Assembly (NCBI GenBank): GCA_036397255.1
Contig: DASWJH010000046.1
Location: 5,020-69,019 of the forward strand
Length of the DNA: 64,000 nt
Direction of reading: 5' to 3'
Source of the DNA: Nitrospiria bacterium
GTDB lineage: Bacteria > Nitrospirota > Nitrospiria > DASWJH01
The translations under genes and the position numbers were made by a program. Positions 7,011 to 19,629 of the stretch are shown in pieces; within the stretch, counting starts at the first letter, position 1, and each line of letters opens with the position of its first letter. The notes below the pieces were generated by a model. The model worked only from the letters and a program-made list of their open reading frames with translations. It ran no database searches and was not told the DNA's origin.

Positions 7011-9731
7011 ATGGTTTTTTCTTCGATGGTCTCAAAGATTTCGAATCTCAGGAATAAACTACTGGCAGGTTTCCTTATGGTTTCCATTATTCCGATGTTG
7101 GTAATGATGTTGACCTACCTTTCTTTTTTGGAAAGAAGTTTAGAACATGAGGTAAACGATCGTTTAACCGCTGCTCGGACTGGTGTGGAGATAGAACTGA
7201 GAGAAAGAGAAGGTTTCCTATTGAATGAAATCGAAAGACATGTTTCCCAGCCGATATTAATAAGCACCATGACTCGAAACCAATTAGAATTTTTAGAAGG
7301 AATTTTAACTCATTTTTTACAGTTGTCACAAGCGGATTTGATTCATTTGTTTGATAAAAGCGGTAAACCCATCCTTGGTCTTCAAAAATTAAAAAACGAA
7401 AATTTGGAACCCTTTAAACCTTTACGGACTTCCCAAACAGAGCGGGTGAACTCCGTCTCTAATTTCTCGCCTTATTCCCAGGATCAAGCAGGAGAGGGTT
7501 TCATTTTTGGCCCTCCCTCAACCCCTTTGCAAACACCCCCAAGCATTCAATCGGAAATCATCCGAACTACCCAATTCAATCGGCTTTCCCCGGAAATCAT
7601 GGAAAAATTATCAAAAAACGGGGAAGCCATTATTCGAAACCAACATCCAGAGGGGATTCATATTTCGGTTTTTAAAATTTTTCAATTTTCCGGTCAAACA
7701 TTAGGAGTCCTTCAGGAGGGGATGTTACTGGATCAAAATTTTCTGGATAGTCTAAAAAAAAGGACGGGTCTTGAGGTTGCCCTGATCAATCCACAAGGAA
7801 ATGGAATTATATCCTCTTTTCATCCGGTAGACCATTTAAACCATCAGGAAAACCCAAAAAAAATTGCCGTGAAAAAAATTGGGGGAACAGGATATTTTTA
7901 TACCCTCCTGCCCATTGGACCGAAGGAAAGCCCGGTGAGGGTTGCCCTATTTGAATCAAAAAATGCCCTTACCGCAAGCAAAACCAAAGCAACAGGGTTT
8001 TTCTTTATAATATTTGGAATGATTACTGCTGTGGTAATGGGAGCAAGTTTTTTGTCCGCAAAAGCGATCACCCAGCAACAAAATCTGGCCGAAGAAGCCC
8101 TTGAAGCCAGCCGGGCAAGTTTTCGAAACGTGGTTGAAAAAAGCGGAGATGGAATTATTATCGTAGATATGGAACAGATTATTCGGTTTGTAAATCCATA
8201 CAGCAGGCTATTTTTTGAAAATAAAATGACTGTTTTCCCAGGGAAACCTTTTAATTTTCCTGTCGTTCCCAATGAACCCAAAGAAATTGAGATCATTCGA
8301 ATTTCAGGGGGGATAGGGGTGGGGGAAATGTTGACGGTTGAAACAGAATGGAATGGAAAGCCTGCCCATTTGATATCCATCAGGGATATTACCGATCGGA
8401 AAAAGGCAGAAGAGTTGATCGAGCATCAAGCCTACCATGATGCGTTAACCATGTTACCCAACCGTTTATTGTTTATTGATCGCTTGAACCAGGAATTGGC
8501 CCGGTGCGGATGGAAAAAACAGCCTGTGGGTGTCATATTTCTTGATCTGGACCAATTTAAACAAATCAATGATACCCTAGGACATACTATAGGAGATTTT
8601 CTGCTTCAAGCGGTTGCAAAACGGTTGGCGGGTTGCACGCGGGAGGGAGATACCATTGCCAGATTGGGGGGAGACGAATTCACGATTCTTCTTGCCGATC
8701 TTGCAACAACTCAAGACATTCCAAAAATTGCTTTGAAAATCCTTGAAATCTTTTTAAACCCATTTGAATTGAAGGACCACGAACTGTATATCACTTCGAG
8801 TATGGGGATCAGTATCTTTCCGAATGATGGGAGGGATTCAGAGACGTTGCTTAAAAATGCGGATACAGCCATGTACCGTGCAAAAGAAAACGGGAGAAAT
8901 AATTATCAATTTTACATTCCCGAAATGAACACTCGGGTTTCTGAAAGGCTTGCTTTGGAAAATGGACTCCGCCGTGCCCTGGAGAGAAATGAATTCATTC
9001 TTCATTACCAACCCCAGGTCAACCTCAGCACAGGGCAAATTGTTGGAATGGAAGCCCTCATAAGATGGAATCATCCGGAAAAGGGGTTAATCTCCCCCTA
9101 CAAATTTATACCCCTCGCCGAAGAAACAGGTCTAATTGTTCCCATAGGAGATTGGGTGATCCGAACCGCTTGTGCTGTGGCCAAGGCCATGCAATCGGTT
9201 GGAAATACGGGGATCAAGGTGGCTATTAATTTATCGGCGCGTCAGTTTTTACAAAGAGATCTTATTCAAAAAATTGATTCTGCCCTTAACAAATCCTTCT
9301 TGGATCCCAAATATTTAGAGCTGGAACTGACGGAAAGCATGATTCAAAATGCGGTTTCCACCCATTCAACGCTAAAGAAATTAAATAGTATGGGTATCCA
9401 AATTTCAATTGATGATTTTGGGACAGGATATTCTTCCCTGAGCTATTTAAGTCGATTTCCCATAAGTAAATTGAAGATTGATAAATCCTTTGTGCATGAT
9501 ATTACCACCAATCCGGATCACTCATCCATCGTTGCTGCCATTATCACATTGGCTCACAACCTAAACCTTAAAACAATTGCTGAAGGGGTTGAAACCCTTG
9601 ATCAAATGAACTATTTGAAATCAATCCAGTGTGACGAAATCCAAGGTTTTGTTTTTAGCCCCCCCTTGCCCCCCGATGAAATTATGGGTTTATTGTCCCA
9701 GAGAAGCCCCTTAAAAATTCTTCCAAGATAA
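7011..9731 (+). CDS. Membrane sensor c-di-GMP enzyme with PAS-GGDEF-EAL architecture
   Basis: N-terminal TM helix followed by a large extracytoplasmic/linker region and a second TM helix. A PAS-like segment is present (VVEKSGDGIIIVDMEQIIRFVNP). The GGDEF active site reads RLGGDEF with the canonical GHTIGD upstream. The EAL motif (EALIRW) and the DDFGTGYSS loop are both present. Confidence 0.85.
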   Translation: MVFSSMVSKISNLRNKLLAGFLMVSIIPMLVMMLTYLSFLERSLEHEVNDRLTAARTGVEIELREREGFLLNEIERHVSQPILISTMTRNQLEFLEGILTHFLQLSQADLIHLFDKSGKPILGLQKLKNENLEPFKPLRTSQTERVNSVSNFSPYSQDQAGEGFIFGPPSTPLQTPPSIQSEIIRTTQFNRLSPEIMEKLSKNGEAIIRNQHPEGIHISVFKIFQFSGQTLGVLQEGMLLDQNFLDSLKKRTGLEVALINPQGNGIISSFHPVDHLNHQENPKKIAVKKIGGTGYFYTLLPIGPKESPVRVALFESKNALTASKTKATGFFFIIFGMITAVVMGASFLSAKAITQQQNLAEEALEASRASFRNVVEKSGDGIIIVDMEQIIRFVNPYSRLFFENKMTVFPGKPFNFPVVPNEPKEIEIIRISGGIGVGEMLTVETEWNGKPAHLISIRDITDRKKAEELIEHQAYHDALTMLPNRLLFIDRLNQELARCGWKKQPVGVIFLDLDQFKQINDTLGHTIGDFLLQAVAKRLAGCTREGDTIARLGGDEFTILLADLATTQDIPKIALKILEIFLNPFELKDHELYITSSMGISIFPNDGRDSETLLKNADTAMYRAKENGRNNYQFYIPEMNTRVSERLALENGLRRALERNEFILHYQPQVNLSTGQIVGMEALIRWNHPEKGLISPYKFIPLAEETGLIVPIGDWVIRTACAVAKAMQSVGNTGIKVAINLSARQFLQRDLIQKIDSALNKSFLDPKYLELELTESMIQNAVSTHSTLKKLNSMGIQISIDDFGTGYSSLSYLSRFPISKLKIDKSFVHDITTNPDHSSIVAAIITLAHNLNLKTIAEGVETLDQMNYLKSIQCDEIQGFVFSPPLPPDEIMGLLSQRSPLKILPR

Positions 9732-11566: not shown

Positions 11567-12436
11567 TCAGAAAACGCGATTTCTCCCCGATTGCTTTGCC
11601 TTATAGAGTGCCTGGTCTGCTTTGTCTACGATATTCGTCACAGTGTTGCCATCCTCTGGAAATACCGCAATTCCGATACTGACCGTTAAGGAAATTTCTT
11701 CATCTTTTTTAATTCTTATTTTTTTTGAAGCAACGGCTCTGCGGATTTTTTCTCCGGTTGAGAGGGCGTTTAATCGTGAGGTCTCGGGTAAAAGAAAAGC
11801 AAATTCTTCTCCCCCGTACCGAAACACCTGATCCACCCCTCTTACTTTGGATTGAATTAATTTGCTCACAGCAATTAAAACTTTATCCCCCGAGGGATGC
11901 CCATGGGTGTCATTGACTAATTTGAAATGGTCAATGTCGAGCATTAAAAGGGAAAAACAATGGCCAAAACGCTGAGAGCGGCTTAATTCCCCTTTTATTT
12001 GATGGGTAAATTCCTTTTTATTTAATAAGCCGGTCAACCCATCATGAATGGAAAGATTTTCATAATACTGCAATGGAAAAAGCAAATCACGTATGGAGAC
12101 CACACCCGCGATCTCCCCTTTTTTCTCCACCACCAGATGGCGGATTTTTTTGCATTCCATGAGCTCTTCCGCTTCTCCGATGGTTTTGTTTTCATGGATA
12201 GAGATGACTGGGGCTGACATGACTTCTTTGACACTTACCTTTTGTGGATTTAAACCCTCCACCACAACCTTATGCAATATATCAGTCCCGGTTAATATTC
12301 CAATGATTTCCTCCCCCTGACGGATTAAGAGGCATCCCACACCTGATTCTTTCATAAAATGAACCGCAGTCCATACGGTTGAATCGAATTGAATTGATAA
12401 GGGATTTTCCCTCATGACGTTCTCAACGGAAATCAT
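11567..12436 (-). CDS. CBS-pair-GGDEF diguanylate cyclase
   Basis: Two CBS motifs at the N-terminus. The GGDEF domain has RYGGEEF and DTHGHPSGD, i.e. the canonical Asp position rather than the Ser found in Hypr-type enzymes. Confidence 0.8.
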   Translation of the reverse strand: MISVENVMRENPLSIQFDSTVWTAVHFMKESGVGCLLIRQGEEIIGILTGTDILHKVVVEGLNPQKVSVKEVMSAPVISIHENKTIGEAEELMECKKIRHLVVEKKGEIAGVVSIRDLLFPLQYYENLSIHDGLTGLLNKKEFTHQIKGELSRSQRFGHCFSLLMLDIDHFKLVNDTHGHPSGDKVLIAVSKLIQSKVRGVDQVFRYGGEEFAFLLPETSRLNALSTGEKIRRAVASKKIRIKKDEEISLTVSIGIAVFPEDGNTVTNIVDKADQALYKAKQSGRNRVF

Positions 12437-12472
12437 TAGAAGCCTATATCCATGAAGGGTAACGGAGAGAGG

Positions 12473-13105
12473 TTATGGCACAACAATGGTGTCCCCGGGG
12501 TGAAGGATGAAATCTCCCAGGGGGCCTTTTCCAGAGACCACATTATCATATTTCAAAGGGATTCTGATTTGTTGCTCTTTTCCTATTCCATCTTTATTGG
12601 GACGAATCACCTGGATTTGGTTTTTCGATGCGAAGGGGGTAAATCCCCCAGCCAGGGAAACACCTTGAAGAACAGTTGCGTATGATTTGACTTGGTATTT
12701 TCCGGGGCGGGTGACCTCACCCAATACATAGAAAAAGTAGCTGTTGACCTCCTTCACCTGAACGGAAACATTCGGAGTCGTCATAAATTCGTTGAGACGA
12801 TATGCAATCCGGTCCGCCAGTTTATCTGCAGTTAAATCAGCGGCAAGGACATCTCCAACCAAGGGCATTGAAATGTAACCATCAGGGCGAATAATGACTT
12901 CGCCAGAAAGATCGGCATTTTTCCAAACGGTAACCTCTAAAACATCCTCAGGCCCAAGAAAAAACTCTACTGGAGGGATGTACTGAACCGGAAACGTATT
13001 GGGTGTAGAGCAGCCCCACAGGGCCAGAAGCGGAAAGAGGAGGCAGCACAATAATGAAATAACTCTCCTGCGTTGTTTCAACATATGTATTTGATTGTAT
13101 TTCAA
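12473..13105 (-). CDS. Wza-like polysaccharide export outer-membrane lipoprotein (Poly_export + SLBB)
   Basis: Lipobox LLALWGCS. The Wza-family core is present: IGPEDVLEVTVW...GEVIIRPDGYISMPLVGDVLAAD-LTADKLADRIAYRLNEF...VSVQVKEVNSYFFYVLGEVTRPGKY. Confidence 0.75.
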   Translation of the reverse strand: MKYNQIHMLKQRRRVISLLCCLLFPLLALWGCSTPNTFPVQYIPPVEFFLGPEDVLEVTVWKNADLSGEVIIRPDGYISMPLVGDVLAADLTADKLADRIAYRLNEFMTTPNVSVQVKEVNSYFFYVLGEVTRPGKYQVKSYATVLQGVSLAGGFTPFASKNQIQVIRPNKDGIGKEQQIRIPLKYDNVVSGKGPLGDFILHPGDTIVVP

Positions 13106-13418
13106 AGAAAAAATTCCTTGGTTTTTCCTCTTTAAAAATTATAACGGGTCCCGCGTGGGTGTCAATAACAAGAATTAGACCCAAGGAAAGTTAATTTTGA
13201 GCGTTTAAGGAAATATTAAGGTCCCTTCATATTTTAGGGGTATCCAGTAAATTATTCCCATTTTCACAAAACGAGAAATAATATCAAGACACTTAATAAC
13301 CCATTGAAAATAAATAAAATTTAAGCTATTCCCTTGCCCAATGGCTTCCTTGACAAAATCCCATTTTATAATACATTTACCATTAAGGGTTTAAATATAC
13401 GTTATTTGGAAAGAAGGG

Positions 13419-13894: not shown

Positions 13895-14330
13895 AGGTTT
13901 TCTCCTTTTAAAATAAAGATCCCCATAGCAAACCCTAGGGTATTCAGAGGAAAAACTAAAATCTCAAATTCCCCTGTGGCCCATTTTCCAAAGGGGGAAC
14001 CTAAGGAGTTGGCCCTTAGCACCCAACGGGAAAAAGTAAGTTCAATTTTTAAAATGATCGTTGGGAAAAGAAAATATTTTAGAGCCTTTTGTGGGGCAAA
14101 GGGTTGGTTCTGGCGGAAAAAAGAAAAGGCACCCAGGAAGGAGGCCCTGTAGGAAAGCGCTATTTTTTTCCTCAATAAAAATCCCCGCAGCAAGACTGCG
14201 GGGTATTTAGAGGAAAAACTAAATCCTCAAATCCCCCTTTATCCCCCTTTTCCAAAGGGGGAACCTAAGCGGTTACCCCGTTGCGAACTACGGGGAATAG
14301 CAAGTTTAAGTTTTTTTTATTTTAAATTCA
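13895..14330. repeat. Two copies (13895-14050 degenerate, 14170-14330 intact) of a hairpin-rich element of about 150 bp downstream of the adhesin gene
   Basis: Both copies share the cores ggtatt(c/t)agaggaaaaactaaa and ttttccaaagggggaacctaag. On the minus strand the intact copy has three GC-clamped hairpins. The last one, CCCCGCAGucuugCUGCGGGG followed by AUUUUUAUU, looks like an intrinsic terminator for the adhesin transcript. Confidence 0.6.
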
Positions 14331-14461: not shown

Positions 14462-17400
14462 TCAAATGTTCCCCACCAAAGGACGCATATGGAAAATTTT
14501 CCTCTTTTCCCATTTTTGAAATAAAAACCTTAAACCCATTAGGAAAGGAACAATAAACATTGCGATATCGACATCTCGGTTTTGGTTGTGGCGGGCATCT
14601 TTCACAAAACCGCATCCTCCTACTGCACTCCCCATATCAGAAATGGCTGAGCCTCCCGATTGGGAGGATACAGTTGGTGGCGGAGTGTTGGACCCCCCTG
14701 AACCCGGCTGAGGGGTGCCTTGGACGGTTACTGGGTTCGTTTGATAATTTCCTTGTCCGTCATAGGAAAAAGCAGAGTAATAATATGTGGTTCCATTTTG
14801 CAGCCCAGTGTGGATAGTACTCTGAACCTCATTGGGAACGCCCGTAAAATCTCCAAGTAATTGCCCATCGTTTACATTTTCAGGAAACCCTCCAGTTGTT
14901 TTGAATACAATTCGGGTCCCGATGTAATCGGGATCTGAAGGGCTCGTCCAGGTTAAGAGAATCTCCTGGTCATTTTCAAAGGCGGAAAATTTTTTGATTT
15001 GGCCGGGGGGAATTTGATCCGGTGCTTTTGGGGTTTTAAAAATTTGATCTAGCGATACCGAAAGATTTCCAGCAGTGTCTAAACTTCTGACCCGAAAATG
15101 GTAGGGAAAATCAGGGGTTAATCCATTGATTGTCATTGAATGGTCCAACATCATGGTAGCGTTAAAAGGGGTTGTGTTTTCGTAGTTTGTGGTTTGCCCA
15201 TATTCGATTTGTGAGGTTGCGGCCTCATTGGTAACCCAAGTGATCAGTATGGTGGTGTTGCTTAAAGAAGTTGTGTTAATGTTTGAAATAACCGGGGGAG
15301 TTTGATCCGGTAAAGAAAGGGTGTTAAAGGTTCCGTCATTCGATACAGAAAGGTTCCCCATGGCATCCATTGTCCGGATTCGAAAATGATAGGTTTTTAA
15401 AGAAGATAAACCAGAAAGGGTGACCTGATGACTCGTTTTTAGGGAAGAATCTAGATTTGATATAAATCCATAAGCGGAGGTTAAACCGAATTCAACTTGG
15501 GAAGTTGCGCCTTCATTAGTAGACCAGTTCACTATGGCACCGGAGCCTGTAATATTGCTGGTGTTGATTCCGGAAATGGATGGAGGAATGGTATCAGGGG
15601 GGGGAGAAGTTGTAAAGGTTTTGTCTGCTGACACCGCTTGGTTTCCAGCGGCATCCATGCTCCGTACCCGGTAATGATAGGTGGTTGATGAGGTCAACCC
15701 GGATAGAGATCTGCTGTGGCTGGTGACTAACGTGGAATTCAAGGCAGAGGTGGACCCATAAGCGGTGGTGGTGCCATACTCCACCTGTGAGGTAGCGCCT
15801 TCACCGGTATTCCAGGTAATGGTGGCGCTGGTGCTGGTGACGGACCCCTCGTTGATGGATGAAATAACAGGGGGGGTGGTATCGGGAAGGGGAGAAGTTG
15901 TAAAGGTTTTGTCTGCTGACACCGTTTGGTTTCCAGCGGCATCCATGCTCCGTACCCGGTAATGATAGGTGGTTGATGAAGTCAACCCGGATAGAGATCT
16001 GCTGTGGCTGGTGACTAATGTGGAATTCAAGGCAGAGGTGGACCCATAGGCGGTGGTGGTGCCATACTCCACCTGTGAGGTAGCGCCTTCATCGGTATTC
16101 CAGGTAATGGTGGCGCTGGTGCTGGTGACGGACCCCTCGTTGATGGATGAAATAACAGGGGGGGTGGTATCGGGAAGAGGAGAAGTTGTAAAGGTATTGT
16201 CTCCTGACACCGCTTGGTTTCCAGCGGCATCTATGCTCCGCACCCGGTAATGATAGGTGTTTGATGAGGTCAACCCGGATAGAGATCTGCTGTGGCTGGT
16301 CACCGGTGTGGAATTCAAGGCAGAGGTGGACCCATAAGACATGGTGGTGCCGTATTCCACTTGGGAGGTCGCCCCTTCATTGGTTGACCATGTGATGACC
16401 GAGGCCGAACTTGAAATATTGCTAGCAGTTAATCCGGAAATAACAGGGGGGGTGGTGTCGGGAGCGGGGAGTGTGGTGAAGGTATTATCCGCTGAGGTGG
16501 CCAGATTACCGGCTGCATCGGAACTTATGACCCGGTAATGATAGGTGGTTGATGAGGTCAACCCGGATAGAGATCTGCTGTGGCTGGTCACCAGCGTGGA
16601 ATTCAGTGCCGAGGTGGACCCATAGGACATGGTGGTGCCGTATTCCACCTGGGAGGTAGCGCCTTCATCCGTTTTCCAGGAAATGGAAACGCTGGTGCTG
16701 GTGACGGAACCTTCTGCAATGGATGAAATAACGGGAGGAGTGATATCGGGAGCGGCAAGTGTGGAAAAGGTATTATCGGCAGAGGTGGCCAGATTTCCTG
16801 CCCCATCTCTGCTCAATACACGGTAATGATAGGTGGTTGATGAGGTCAGTCCGGATAAGGCTCTGCTGTGGCTGGTCACCGGTGTGGAATTCAGTGCGGA
16901 GGTGGACCCATAGGCCGTTGTGGTACCATATTCCACCTGGGATGTTGCGTCTTCATCCGTATTCCAGGTTATTGTAGCGTTGGTACTGGTGACGGAACCC
17001 TCTGTGATAGATGAAATGACAGGAGGGGTGGTATCCGGGGGGGAAGTCGTCGTAAATGTGTTATCCCCAGAATTGCCAAGGTTTCCTACATTATCTCGGC
17101 TTAAAACTCTAAAATGGTAAACGGTTGAAGGCAGTAGTCCACTTAAATCTTGGCTATGGGAAGTAACCAGCGTATTGATTAGGCTGGTTGTAGAACCATA
17201 GGCGGAACTGGTCCCATATTCAATTTGAGTACTGGAAGGTTCGTTTGTTACCCATGTAATGGTTGCCCCATTATTGCTGATACTAAGGGAGGAAATATTT
17301 GAAATGGCGGGTGGGGTAGTATCCGGCGGATTTAATGTGATGAAGGTATTATCTCCCGAAATGGCCATATTTCCTGCTACATCCTGACTGACAACCCGGT

Positions 17401-17929
17401 AATGATAGGTGGTAGAGGGGGTAAGGTTACTCAGGGATCGGCTATGGTTTGTGGTTAGGTTTGAATTGATCGGTGTTGATGAACCGTAATTTGTGGTTAC
17501 CCCGTAATCCACCTGGGATGTTGCCCCTTCATTAGTCGCCCAAACAATGTCCACGCTAGAGCTGCCCATATTGACGGCAGATATCGATGAAATGGCAGGT
17601 GGAGTTATATCCCCGAAACTTTTATTCACCTCGATTGAATAAGGACTTTCATTACCTCCAAAATCATAAGCGGTGACCGCAAAAAAGTAGGTTCCCAAAC
17701 CCAATCCAGTTACGGTGTAAGAGGTCTGGTTCCCAACATCCATAGGGGGACTGTAGGTTCGAGAGGCGGTCCCAACGTAAACTTTATATCCTGCCAAATC
17801 GGGTTCGGTATTGGCATCCCAGCTGAGAAAGGCGTCTCCTGCATAACCCAAGCGGGAAAGTGCTAAAAACACAAATATGAATAAGGTGAGTTTAAAAAAA
17901 CAGGATAATGAGCTTGAAAATTTCATCAT
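14462..17929 (-). CDS. Giant secreted FN3-repeat surface protein (adhesin-like, about 11 tandem fibronectin type III-like modules)
   Basis: Signal peptide MMKFSSSLSCFFKLTLFIFVFLALSRLGYA. Roughly 96-aa modules recur, beginning DTTPPVISSI..ATITWNTDEGATSQVEYGTT.AYGSTSALNSTLVTSHSRSLSGLTSSTTYHYRV. The C-terminus has a G/S/P-rich linker, a GGCG motif, then a hydrophobic helix and a basic tail (IAMFIVPFLMGLRFLFQKWEKRK), which resembles a sorting signal or membrane anchor. Confidence 0.85.
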   Translation of the reverse strand: MMKFSSSLSCFFKLTLFIFVFLALSRLGYAGDAFLSWDANTEPDLAGYKVYVGTASRTYSPPMDVGNQTSYTVTGLGLGTYFFAVTAYDFGGNESPYSIEVNKSFGDITPPAISSISAVNMGSSSVDIVWATNEGATSQVDYGVTTNYGSSTPINSNLTTNHSRSLSNLTPSTTYHYRVVSQDVAGNMAISGDNTFITLNPPDTTPPAISNISSLSISNNGATITWVTNEPSSTQIEYGTSSAYGSTTSLINTLVTSHSQDLSGLLPSTVYHFRVLSRDNVGNLGNSGDNTFTTTSPPDTTPPVISSITEGSVTSTNATITWNTDEDATSQVEYGTTTAYGSTSALNSTPVTSHSRALSGLTSSTTYHYRVLSRDGAGNLATSADNTFSTLAAPDITPPVISSIAEGSVTSTSVSISWKTDEGATSQVEYGTTMSYGSTSALNSTLVTSHSRSLSGLTSSTTYHYRVISSDAAGNLATSADNTFTTLPAPDTTPPVISGLTASNISSSASVITWSTNEGATSQVEYGTTMSYGSTSALNSTPVTSHSRSLSGLTSSNTYHYRVRSIDAAGNQAVSGDNTFTTSPLPDTTPPVISSINEGSVTSTSATITWNTDEGATSQVEYGTTTAYGSTSALNSTLVTSHSRSLSGLTSSTTYHYRVRSMDAAGNQTVSADKTFTTSPLPDTTPPVISSINEGSVTSTSATITWNTGEGATSQVEYGTTTAYGSTSALNSTLVTSHSRSLSGLTSSTTYHYRVRSMDAAGNQAVSADKTFTTSPPPDTIPPSISGINTSNITGSGAIVNWSTNEGATSQVEFGLTSAYGFISNLDSSLKTSHQVTLSGLSSLKTYHFRIRTMDAMGNLSVSNDGTFNTLSLPDQTPPVISNINTTSLSNTTILITWVTNEAATSQIEYGQTTNYENTTPFNATMMLDHSMTINGLTPDFPYHFRVRSLDTAGNLSVSLDQIFKTPKAPDQIPPGQIKKFSAFENDQEILLTWTSPSDPDYIGTRIVFKTTGGFPENVNDGQLLGDFTGVPNEVQSTIHTGLQNGTTYYYSAFSYDGQGNYQTNPVTVQGTPQPGSGGSNTPPPTVSSQSGGSAISDMGSAVGGCGFVKDARHNQNRDVDIAMFIVPFLMGLRFLFQKWEKRKIFHMRPLVGNI
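15450..17000. repeat. Near-identical 288-bp tandem DNA repeats inside the adhesin CDS
   Basis: Shadow ORFs 15739..15942 and 16027..16230 are about 95% identical and sit 288 bp apart. The encoded FN3 modules 5-7 are nearly identical at the protein level. Confidence 0.8.
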
Positions 17930-17948
17930 AACTTTTCCCCTTTACATT

Positions 17949-18068
17949 AAAAAAAAACCGCCAAAGACTTTTCCCCTTTGGCGGCTCGGCGGGCATTTGA
18001 TCCCTGAGGGATCATTAGCCCCGGTGCTCTGCGTCACCACCTTTCGATGGATTTGCTCTGAGCAAAGG
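17949..18068 (-). promoter_or_regulatory. c-di-GMP-I (GEMM-I)-type riboswitch, copy 1 (proximal to the adhesin start), with an intrinsic terminator
   Basis: Minus-strand RNA: CCUUUGCUCAGAGCAAAUCCAUCGAAAGGUGGUGACGCAGAGCACCGGGGCUAAUGAUCCCUCAGGGAUCAAAUGCCCGCCGAGCCGCCAAAGGggaaaagucUUUGGCGG-U9. It matches the GEMM-I core remembered from V. cholerae Vc2 (..GGGCAAACC AUUC GAAA GAGU GGGACGCAAAGCC UCCGGCCUAA..): GCAAA(c/u)C, a 4/5-bp P2 capped by GAAA, the J2/3 GACGCAGAGC, and a P3 with CUAA. The terminator is a perfect 9-bp stem plus U9, and its 5' arm CAAAGG could alternatively form P1 with the 5' CCUUUG. Confidence 0.7.
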
Positions 18069-18192
18069 TATCAAACGAACAAGATGTCCCCAATTTATAT
18101 AGGCTTTGAAAGCCCATCCTTCCTAACCAGTGTGAGATTCCAGGCGGAATTCTCACTTTTTTTATTCGATGGCATCCCCCCTTTCTTTTTTT

Positions 18193-18312
18193 AAAAAAAA
18201 CCGCCAAGGATAGTTTTCCTTTGGTGGCTCGGCGGGCATTTGATCCCTGAGAGATCATTAGCCCCGGTGCTCTGCGTCTCCACCTTTCGATGGGTTTGCT
18301 CTGAGCAAAGGG
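18193..18312 (-). promoter_or_regulatory. c-di-GMP-I (GEMM-I)-type riboswitch, copy 2, with an intrinsic terminator
   Basis: Minus-strand RNA: CCUUUGCUCAGAGCAAACCCAUCGAAAGGUGGAGACGCAGAGCACCGGGGCUAAUGAUCUCUCAGGGAUCAAAUGCCCGCCGAGCCACCAAAGGaaaacuauCCUUGGCGG-U8. The core is identical to copy 3. The terminator stem has one mismatch and one bulge. Confidence 0.7.
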
Positions 18313-18391
18313 AATAAAAAGTTAAATTTTTTGGGTTTAATTTTAAAAAACCATAAAGTGTGATTCCCCTATATTGGTTTTAGGTCAAAAT

Positions 18392-18507
18392 AAAAAAGCC
18401 ACCAAAAAGAATCCTTTGGCGGCTCGGCGGGCATTTGATCCCTGAGAGATCATTAGCCCCGGTGCTCTGCGTCTCCACCTTTCGATGGGTTTGCTCTGAG
18501 CAAAGGG
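18392..18507 (-). promoter_or_regulatory. c-di-GMP-I (GEMM-I)-type riboswitch, copy 3 (promoter-proximal), with an intrinsic terminator
   Basis: Same aptamer core as copy 2. The terminator is GCCGCCAAAGGauucUUUUUGGUGGC followed by a U-rich run (9 bp including one G.U pair). Confidence 0.7.
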
Positions 18508-18546
18508 TATTTACTTTATTTAGTTTTTTAAATTTCTTGAAACTGG

Positions 18547-18575
18547 AAATTACACCTGTTTTTAAAATATGTCAA
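18547..18575 (-). promoter_or_regulatory. Sigma70-like promoter driving the riboswitch array and adhesin gene
   Basis: On the minus strand: TTGACA (18575..18570), a 17-nt spacer, then TAATTT (18552..18547). This places the TSS about 25-30 nt upstream of riboswitch copy 3. Confidence 0.5.
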
Positions 18576-19008
18576 GCTTTAAGATTGCAATTTAAAAAAA
18601 TCATTCAAAGATTCCCCCCTTATAACAACCCGACCAAGCCGGGTTGGGTAAAAAGGCTTAAAGAGGTTTCGTGATTGTTCGATCTAACTTTTGTGATGGT
18701 TCCCTTTTTTGGTGCATTTCAAATGCCAAACCCAATTTGGATTTCAAAAAGCATAAAAATTTCAAAATGAATTTGTAAACAATCAACCAGTTAGATCGAA
18801 CTGAATTTTTCTTGATGAGTCAAATTCGTAATGGGTTCGAATAGAATTCCGGAATCGACCTACATAGGGTTGTTCAAAAAGGGCACACTTTTTATGAGAA
18901 AATTTGAAAATCCCAGAAGGATGGGCTTATAATGCTTCGAAAAGGCGGAAATTTCTGGAAAATTTTCCCAACCCACAGGAACCAGCGCTTTTAAAGGGAG
19001 GTTCAAAT

Positions 19009-19404: not shown

Positions 19405-19477
19405 CGGTTTATAGATTTAGAAGGATTAATGAATTTTCTATTAAAACCCACTTTAAAATTTTGGAAAAAAAAGAGGA

Positions 19478-19615
19478 TTGACAAATCCCATTGAAAATTT
19501 TATATTAGGAGAAACCTTTAACCTAGCTCTGTGAGGCTAGAAAGGGAAGGAATGGATAAAAAACTAAGTTTACTAAAGGCCTTCTCCTGTCACTAGGGGG
19601 GCCTTTTTTTTTGCT
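19478..19615 (+). promoter_or_regulatory. pyr operon promoter plus PyrR-binding attenuator (binding loop and intrinsic terminator)
   Basis: Promoter: TTGACA (19478-19483), 17-nt spacer, TATATT (19501-19506). PyrR binding loop: CCUAGCUCUGUGAGGCUAGAAAGG (compare B. subtilis ..AGUCCAGAGAGGCUGAGAAGG). Terminator: AAGGCC...GGCCUU followed by U9 (19577-19615), just before the pyrR ATG. Confidence 0.7.
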
Positions 19616-19629
19616 TTTGGGTAATTTGG

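Follow-up and report, generated by a model that had tools for sequence, protein, structure and literature searches.

The stretch of DNA analysed here (the window) is 64,000 nucleotides (nt) long and comes from an uncultured Nitrospiria bacterium (GenBank assembly GCA_036397255.1, contig DASWJH010000046.1, positions 5,020 to 69,019 of the forward strand). Its minus strand carries three GEMM-I riboswitch aptamers, which we call units A, B and C in the order of transcription, in the leader of a single gene for a large surface protein, the adhesin. An earlier description made from the letters alone (the sequence-only reading) had proposed that each aptamer has its own terminator and that the three act in series on the gene. 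The features of the locus are as follows, from the promoter side to the end of the adhesin unit; coordinates are those of the window, and the bit scores of the aptamers are for Rfam model RF01051 and for a covariance model of our own (R1), respectively.

18547..18575, minus strand: putative sigma-70-type promoter, by direct reading TTGACA (18575-18570), a 17-nt spacer and TAATTT (18552-18547)
18413..18507, minus strand: unit A aptamer, the 5'-most (51.9 and 84.7 bits)
18385..18425, minus strand: unit A intrinsic terminator, a 13-bp hairpin (18425-18396) then UUUUUUAUUUU; its 5' arm overlaps the aptamer 3' strand
18218..18312, minus strand: unit B aptamer, in the middle (51.3 and 79.1 bits, the latter the lowest R1 score of the three)
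18190..18230, minus strand: unit B intrinsic terminator, an internally mismatched hairpin then U8; minimum-free-energy structure in RNAfold and the weakest of the three
18070..18189, minus strand: B-C spacer of ~120 nt, structured (predicted -31 kcal/mol over 18070-18200)
17975..18069, minus strand: unit C aptamer, the 3'-most (52.2 and 86.8 bits)
17947..17987, minus strand: unit C intrinsic terminator, a 13-bp hairpin (17987-17955) then U9, ending just 5' of the ribosome-binding site
17936..17943, minus strand: adhesin Shine-Dalgarno sequence AAAGGGGA, by direct reading 6-7 nt upstream of the ATG at 17929
14462..17929, minus strand: regulated adhesin gene, with a 1155-amino-acid (aa) product (NCBI HEX9757257.1)
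14183..14203, minus strand: intrinsic terminator of the adhesin unit, CCCCGCAGUCUUGCUGCGGGG then AUUUUUAUU, strong

The whole window was scanned with cmscan against Rfam 15 at the gathering thresholds (a score of 35 for RF01051, the cyclic di-GMP-I (c-di-GMP-I) or GEMM-I family). Exactly three matches to RF01051 were found, all on the minus strand, at 18415-18505 (51.9 bits), 18220-18310 (51.3 bits) and 17977-18067 (52.2 bits), each with an E-value of ~3e-7 for the whole window and each covering model positions 1-87 of 87. The family and strand given in the sequence-only reading were thus correct, and the motifs that it quoted are all present as written: CCUUUG/CAAAGG in P1, CCAUC-GAAA-GGUGG in P2, GACGCAGAGC in J2/3 and the CUAA bulge of P3. 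The same scan gave one tRNA besides these three matches, and no other riboswitch family matched anywhere in the window at the gathering threshold. A fourth aptamer copy was found neither with Rfam at E<=10 over 17600-19000, which added only noise, nor with our own covariance model with its filters off. Upstream of the putative promoter, AUCUUUGAAUGAUUUUUUUAAA (18591-18612, minus strand) resembles the 3' half and U-tract of the three terminators (our repeat family D2); we considered it as the remnant of a decayed fourth unit and rejected this, since neither of these searches gave an aptamer signal upstream of it.

The repeat unit is 129 nt long (17947-18075, 18190-18318 and 18385-18513). Unit A has the GEMM-I fold including P1 (CCUUUG/CAAAGG), and the equivalent of its G20 in the Vc2 aptamer is an A at position 18495. 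Unit B differs from unit A at a single position, a G-to-A change (GCCGCC to GCCACC, window 18220-18222) that disrupts the C8-G99 pair adjoining the ligand-pairing C, a pair that is C-G in 90 of 95 relatives (below), and unit C differs from unit A at four positions, among them a U-to-C change that turns a U-G pair of P3 into C-G. The array is present, identical save for one single-nucleotide polymorphism (SNP), in three further metagenome assemblies and is therefore no assembly artefact. A population SNP in unit C (GCCCGCC to GCCAGCC in our metagenome contig L002, positions 1301-2011, compared with window 17930-18640) falls at an unpaired bulge position and shifts the unit toward the Rfam consensus (AGC), which raises its score from 52.2 to 54.6 bits.

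Synteny was of no help in comparing the aptamers, because none of 12 Nitrospirota pyrR loci has a GEMM-I at the syntenic position (the PyrR relatives in GTDB genomes are from Nitrospirota metagenome-assembled genomes (MAGs), at no more than 71% identity). Comparative data came from a scan of metagenomes with the degenerate core pattern AGAGCAAA-N6-GAAA-N6-GACGCAGAGC, which found at least 120 stretches, with 119 distinct cores among the matches listed; 95 aptamers among those listed were aligned. From this alignment RNAalifold recovered P1, P2 and P3, with compensatory changes in 18 of the 27 pairs. Standard pairs occupy 95.4% of the cells, compared with 85.0% in column shuffles (0 of 500 shuffles reached the observed value), changes on both sides of a pair number 251 cells compared with 63 in the shuffles, and when the partners are slid by 1-3 columns the paired cells fall to 24-49%. 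Covariation is visible in P1 itself, where CGCUG/CAGCG, CUCUG/CAGAG and CUUUG/CAAAG all occur. The P1-P2-P3 architecture is supported by this covariation. All three window units also have the GAAA tetraloop and a P3 bulge, CUAA...AAUG, that resembles the consensus CUAAg...uAuG and is the candidate receptor for docking of the tetraloop.

Every unit closes with a GC-rich hairpin followed by U8-9, as had been proposed. A simple terminator scan lists only the hairpins of units A and C, and RNAfold makes the terminator hairpin the minimum-free-energy structure in all three (z-scores of -3.1, -2.75 and -4.6 relative to shuffles). In unit B the core complementarity is only 7/9, and the mismatches stem from its G-to-A change. 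The 5' arm of the terminator, GAGCCGCCAAAGG, takes in the 3' strands of both the P3 base and P1, together with the unpaired C that aligns with Vc2 C92. Because these nucleotides are shared, aptamer and terminator are mutually exclusive, and each unit should therefore be an ON switch; the opposite, OFF-switch reading is ruled out by the identity of the aptamer 3' strand with the terminator 5' arm. The ON logic put forward earlier, in which P1 and the terminator compete, thus holds, and it extends to the ligand-pairing C and part of P3, the same design as in the published switches pilM and Bc3-5. In pilM, an ON switch for cGAMP (3',3'-cyclic GMP-AMP), this logic has been shown experimentally, and there the terminator sequesters the ligand-pairing C75 (PMC9262584).

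The design is also found among the relatives. In a direct test of complementarity, 71 of 93 relatives turned out to have, within 55 nt downstream, a segment that can pair with the aptamer 3' strand at 8/9 positions or better (10% in the shuffle control), and 64 of these 71 segments precede a U-tract. For the window units, a ligand-free nearest-neighbour model favours the terminator state over the P1-enforced state by 15.9 (A), 11.0 (B) and 16.5 (C) kcal/mol, and in a transcript that ends at P1, P1 is present in the minimum-free-energy fold. A terminator that is the more stable and a P1 that forms first are, in this model, the arrangement expected of kinetic, co-transcriptional control.

During transcription the aptamer, including its P1 (CCUUUG/CAAAGG), would form first. 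With a cyclic dinucleotide bound, P1, the ligand-pairing C and the P3 base would be held so that the downstream strand could not capture them, no terminator would form, and RNA polymerase would proceed to the next unit. With no ligand present, the downstream strand would pair with GAGCCGCCAAAGG to give the 13-bp hairpin and its U8-9, and transcription would stop. Full-length adhesin mRNA would then need read-through at all three gates, and output would be the product of three occupancies. ON polarity and serial gating are here deduced from structure and from the validated homologues, and we consider it very probable that the locus holds three complete GEMM-I riboswitches in series, which would be independent transcriptional ON switches before one surface-protein gene.

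The limits of the transcribed unit fit this arrangement. The adhesin gene ends in the terminator at 14203-14183, and the next minus-strand gene has its own promoter, a 12/12 match to the sigma-70 consensus (TTGACA-16-TATAAT, 13165-13138); the adhesin gene is therefore monocistronic, and the array controls one gene. No annotated gene lies between the aptamers. At the 5' side of the gene, the U-tract of the last terminator ends ~8-10 nt before AAAGGGG, with the ATG at 17929, which bears out the earlier placement of this terminator close to the ribosome-binding site. The promoter TTGACA-N17-TAATTT is likewise present upstream of the array as quoted in that reading, and transcription from it would start near 18537-18541; our promoter scan did not list it because its -10 hexamer matches at only 3/6 positions. 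No site in the spacers passes the consensus scan for an internal promoter, and the region shows no enrichment of promoter-like sites. From the sequence, transcription from one upstream promoter is plausible.

Several points weigh against three fully working serial gates. The promoter is a weak 9/12 match, and ~200 nt upstream of it, at 18779-18750, there is another candidate that also matches 9/12. The nearest-neighbour energies leave out tertiary contacts and ligand. In unit B the substitution adjoins the binding pocket and the terminator is mismatched; judged from its sequence this unit is probably the leakiest gate and the one of lowest affinity, and it may be a degraded, leaky gate that would leave the array nearer to two gates. 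Finally, the B-C spacer is long and structured and has an RBS-like (ribosome-binding-site-like) site and a short open reading frame (ORF), so that extra regulation or an internal start may occur there. This spacer contains a perfect hairpin at 18132-18156, GUGAGAAUUCC-GCC-UGGAAUCUCAC, that is unique in the window, and a Shine-Dalgarno-like AAAGGGGGG with an ATG that opens a 26-codon ORF (18095-18175). An AAAGGGG-like Shine-Dalgarno sequence and an ATG follow each terminator (AGGGG...AUG motifs are found 3' of units A and C as well), which suggests that the duplicated module was aptamer, terminator and ribosome-binding site together; the B-C spacer may be a relic of its duplication.

The structured spacer also bears on whether the prematurely terminated leader RNAs (~150, 350 and 590 nt) might themselves be functional, as ligand sponges or trans-acting small RNAs. 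Three strong terminators would be expected to give abundant short transcripts, each with one to three high-affinity aptamers, and the B-C spacer is unusually structured; on the other hand, we found no evidence in support of such a role, the spacers are not conserved between units, the spacer hairpin occurs once in the window, and simple cis-regulation accounts for every feature. We regard a separate role for these RNAs as highly improbable.

A history of duplication has to be weighed as well. The aptamers are 95-99% identical to one another, compared with 50-75% for the 28 nt that follow P1 and 27-40% for the 30 nt upstream, and the aptamers are therefore under purifying selection or have been homogenised. 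The 95-99% identity is also compatible with a recent tandem duplication after which only one unit matters (probably C, next to the gene) and the upstream copies are neutral or decaying. The substitution in unit B, which breaks a conserved pair and weakens the terminator, could be read as such decay, as could one metagenome contig (L124) that has a doublet and a decayed third copy, and GEMM-I is absent from the array's position in the syntenic Nitrospirota relatives. Against this, flanks and terminator loops have diverged to 27-75% identity and the aptamers have not, a pattern implying that the aptamers are subject to selection or gene conversion. Each of the three units retains a complete aptamer above the gathering score and a terminator with a U-tract, an intact terminator in a leader gates transcription whether it is 'needed' or not, and in the Bc3-5 triplet each added unit tightens control (PMC4759541). 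We consider a single functional unit with idle copies unlikely, and three gates in series remain our preferred reading.

What would three gates do to the response? The sequence-only reading had predicted a steep, near-digital dependence on second messenger. With independent 1:1 gates in series as the response model, the ratio of the effective concentrations for 90% and 10% response (EC90/EC10) is 81-fold for one gate, 40-fold for two and 32-fold for three, which corresponds to apparent Hill coefficients of 1.00, 1.19 and 1.26, respectively, and the half-maximal concentration (EC50) of the three-gate array rises to ~3.9 K, where K is the constant of one 1:1 gate. When a leak of ~6% and a maximal read-through of ~80% are borrowed from the values modelled for pilM (PMC9262584), the calculated off state of three gates is ~2e-4 and the maximum ~0.5, and the dynamic range grows from 13 to 178 to 2370 for one, two and three gates. 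Leak would be reduced roughly as the cube, the threshold would shift to ~3.5-4 times K, and the gain in steepness would be modest. With a Hill coefficient of only 1.26 and so large a drop in leak, the prediction of near-digital behaviour is an overstatement on this model; the main gain would be in leak and dynamic range, and the array is therefore best called a leak-suppressing threshold device. This agrees with the behaviour of Bc3-5, in which the third unit lowered the background while the maximum was starting to drop (Zhou et al. 2016, PMC4759541).

A leader that holds three riboswitches of the same class, every one of them with an expression platform, is a tandem array, and such arrays are known. 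The review of Sherlock et al. 2022 (PMC9481103) catalogues 347 doublets and 12 triplets of c-di-GMP-I and nine c-di-GMP-II triplets, the latter mostly 5' of a surface-anchor protein gene, interprets the catalogued arrays as pseudo-cooperative with multiple expression platforms, and does not, as far as we could see, separate A- from G-variant units within arrays. Another survey found c-di-GMP riboswitches significantly enriched in tandem arrangements. The triple array had earlier been called unusual; with 12 c-di-GMP-I and nine c-di-GMP-II triplets catalogued, and with the ON triplet Bc3-5 tested in front of surface proteins, it is not.

The closest parallel is Bc3-5 of B. thuringiensis CT-43 (PMC4759541), which also has three highly similar complete GEMM-I riboswitches in one 5' untranslated region, a terminator for each unit that shares nucleotides with P1, part of P3 and the ligand-pairing C, ON polarity, and targets in the cell surface and adhesion. 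Bc3-5 was both predicted and tested to be ON, and the triple was stricter than a double or a single unit (PMC4759541). It differs in that it belongs to a Firmicute, with reported Vc2-like c-di-GMP sites, and controls a five-gene operon, whereas the window array has a Nitrospiria host, an A at the G20 equivalent and a single target gene. The Geobacter GEMM-Ib (cGAMP) riboswitches, transcriptional ON switches to which pilM belongs, share with the window units the GEMM-I fold, the A at the G20 equivalent, a terminator that sequesters the ligand-pairing C, and extracellular or surface targets; they occur in tandem pairs, for example upstream of omcAHG (GSU2885), with only doublets reported. Geobacter is of a different phylum, and, unlike there, no Hypr GGDEF is seen in the 64-kb window; the J2/3 of pilM is GACGGAAAG and that of the window units GACGCAGAG, and the pairs that flank the pocket differ too (below).

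The architecture is thus already known, and what is new is the Nitrospiria host lineage and that all three units are A-variants. To our knowledge riboswitch regulation in Nitrospirota has been little studied, and the locus is a clear-cut natural case of riboswitches gating in series in that phylum, in which commitment to a large surface protein would depend on a cyclic-dinucleotide signal with very low leak. In the literature accessible to us, neither all-A triplets nor mixed A/G pairs came up; the surveys make no distinction by this base, however, and all-A or mixed arrays may already sit among the catalogued examples.

The A in question is at Rfam model position 11, the unpaired base directly 5' of GCAAA and the equivalent of Vc2 G20; the consensus there is G, all three units have A (CAG-A-GCAAA), and the sequence-only reading had missed this base. 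Of the bases that contact ligand in c-di-GMP-I aptamers (G20, A47 and C92), the equivalents of A47 and C92 are kept in all units and that of G20 is A in all of them, so that the 20/47/92 signature is 'AAC', as in GEMM-Ib. The numbering was checked in two ways: it places A47 at the first A that follows the GACGC pair strand, and the same register applied to the published pilM sequence returns the residues that the paper names (U15.G38, C75 and A28 of the tetraloop). A14 and A41 of Gs1761 agree with it as well. By the published rule, G at this position goes with c-di-GMP and A with c-AMP-GMP, and in PMC9481103 the A signature is used for predicting c-AMP-GMP riboswitches, with in-line probing confirming a D. 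acetoxidans variant. An A in all units therefore puts the choice between c-di-GMP and 3',3'-cGAMP in question.

One answer would be that the three units are cGAMP-selective GEMM-Ib riboswitches and that the adhesin is switched on by 3',3'-cGAMP from a Hypr GGDEF or CD-NTase elsewhere in the genome. The c-AMP-GMP signature in all three units (A at the G20 equivalent, A47 and C92 kept) speaks for it, as does the occurrence in ~15 related loci of an A-type aptamer paired in fixed order with a canonical G-type one (below), which suggests that the two types are not redundant, and Geobacter cGAMP riboswitches likewise control surface structures and occur in tandem. The rest of the pocket argues otherwise. 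Its flanking pairs in the window units are G-C and C-G (A-GC-AAA ... GAC-GC-AGA), canonical for GEMM-I and like those of Vc2, whereas those of the selective pilM are C-G and U.G (A-CU-AAA ... GAC-GG-AAA, from the supplement of PMC9262584), and the window units have none of the pilM-type lower-P2 pairs; selectivity is reported to change when lower P2 is mutated, with no strict requirement established (PMC9262584).

The window units instead match the context of the Vc2 G20A mutant, CAG-A-GCAAACC ... GACGC, a canonical core with only the G-to-A change; Vc2 G20A is engineered, whereas the window RNAs are natural and have an additional A48-to-G change. In vitro Vc2 G20A is bispecific, with about equal binding of c-di-GMP (53 nM) and cGAMP (120 nM); among natural A-variants, Cbe 1-2 has a preference for c-di-GMP (30 nM compared with 463 nM for cGAMP), and bispecificity has been described as widespread. 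Published A-variants bind c-di-GMP through an adenine in protonated form, and the natural ones that we found described range from ~1200-1600-fold selectivity for cGAMP to the c-di-GMP preference of Cbe 1-2. By analogy, the A-variant pocket of the window units may accept both 3',3'-cGAMP and c-di-GMP.

The neighbouring genes also count against a cGAMP-selective array. Both GGDEF proteins encoded in the window (a CBS-GGDEF protein at 11567-12436 and a GGDEF-EAL protein at 7011-9731) share the Asp that is canonical at -24, and the CBS-GGDEF protein carries a GGEEF motif, which Hypr GGDEF enzymes never have. The CBS-GGDEF protein is thereby ruled out as a Hypr cGAMP synthase, the GGDEF-EAL protein is likewise canonical, and no cGAMP synthase (Hypr GGDEF or DncV-like CD-NTase) was seen within the 64 kb. 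On the contigs with A-type aptamers, none of the four GGDEF domains in 731 kb is of the Hypr type, all being canonical, a sample too small to inform. We think that c-di-GMP may well be the physiological signal, that selectivity for cGAMP is possible but doubtful, and that bispecific or other sensing takes up the remainder; c-di-GMP or bispecific sensing is slightly more likely than cGAMP-selective sensing. [quoted passage not shown]

A second departure from the consensus is shared by all units: in J2/3, GACGCAGAGC (18463-18472 in unit A), the intercalating A47 is followed by G, at a place where the Rfam consensus shows an A of high conservation. This base is A in pilM and in the G-type partner aptamers described next, and our search pattern demanded G at this place, which biases the co-occurrence of A20 and G48 among the relatives.

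The first ORF 3' of the related aptamers almost always begins with a signal-peptide or lipoprotein N-terminus. Five complete downstream proteins carry Big_2/Big_1 Ig-like repeats (E-values from 1e-35 to 1e-65), and proteins on three contigs (L122, L168 and L167) share the N-terminal FN3-like domain of the window adhesin at 39-48% identity. As far as sequence can tell, the A-type subfamily regulates surface repeat proteins; such targets fit the general picture of GEMM-I regulons. Tentatively, the window array could be a homotypic triple cGAMP-responsive (GEMM-Ib-type) riboswitch that is part of a large A20/G48 subfamily in soil and sediment controlling Ig-like and FN3 surface proteins, a proposal that we rate as rather less probable than not; if true, cGAMP signalling through riboswitches, integrated with c-di-GMP, would reach surface adhesion well beyond Geobacter.

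Mixed GEMM-I tandems occur on soil and sediment contigs, where an A-type aptamer (GCUCAGAGCAAA...GACGCAGAGC) is followed ~90 nt on by a G-type one (ACAAAGGCAAA...GACGCAAAGC). This A-then-G order was seen on contigs L086, L093 (6709-6987, minus strand), L096, L097, L098, L102, L118 and L128, and further on L133, L137, L147, L164, L170, L175, L201 and L202; the reversed order, G-type then A-type, was seen on two AT-rich contigs (L092:1296-1603 and L168:964-1283). A mixed pair may be a two-input gate (cGAMP AND c-di-GMP) or may offer two affinities for one ligand. If the proposal of cGAMP-responsive A-type units is true, an A-type unit in series with a c-di-GMP aptamer could form a two-messenger AND gate in many bacteria, and the mixed A/G tandems, if confirmed, would be natural two-messenger logic gates.

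The adhesin itself is identical to HEX9757257.1, a MAG-derived protein that NCBI names 'fibronectin type III domain-containing protein [Nitrospiria bacterium]'. It has a signal peptide, ~10 repeats of the FN3 or Pur_ac_phosph_N type (Pfam E-values of 2e-70 and 2e-43) and, in its C-terminal part, a Gly/Ser-rich linker followed by a hydrophobic anchor segment with a basic tail. It had been called a giant adhesin; at 1155 aa it is large only. In the tail (14462-14700) the Gly/Ser-rich linker leads into a GGCGF motif, then a hydrophobic helix and last the basic cluster QKWEKRK, which recalls the layout of MYXO-CTERM or PEP-CTERM sorting signals at protein C-termini; no NCBIfam model matched the tail, even at E<=10. 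Residues 986-1078 give a partial match to MXAN_2561-family proteins.

On the other side of the array, no match to the PyrR-binding-site RNA (RF00515) above its gathering score was found at window 19405-19629, the place corresponding to that at which Nitrospirota relatives carry this RNA just 5' of pyrR (L005:5849-5952, L014:5832-5952 and L010:1623-1739). Downstream of the adhesin unit, the promoter at 13165-13138 drives two genes (11567-13165, minus strand), the first for a Poly_export/SLBB polysaccharide exporter, whose top NCBIfam match is the PEP-CTERM-system exporter, below the cut-off, and the second for the CBS-domain diguanylate cyclase. A module for c-di-GMP and exopolysaccharide thus adjoins the riboswitch-controlled adhesin gene, and the 906-aa GGDEF-EAL protein (7011-9731, plus strand) is encoded by a second c-di-GMP turnover gene less than 10 kb from the array.

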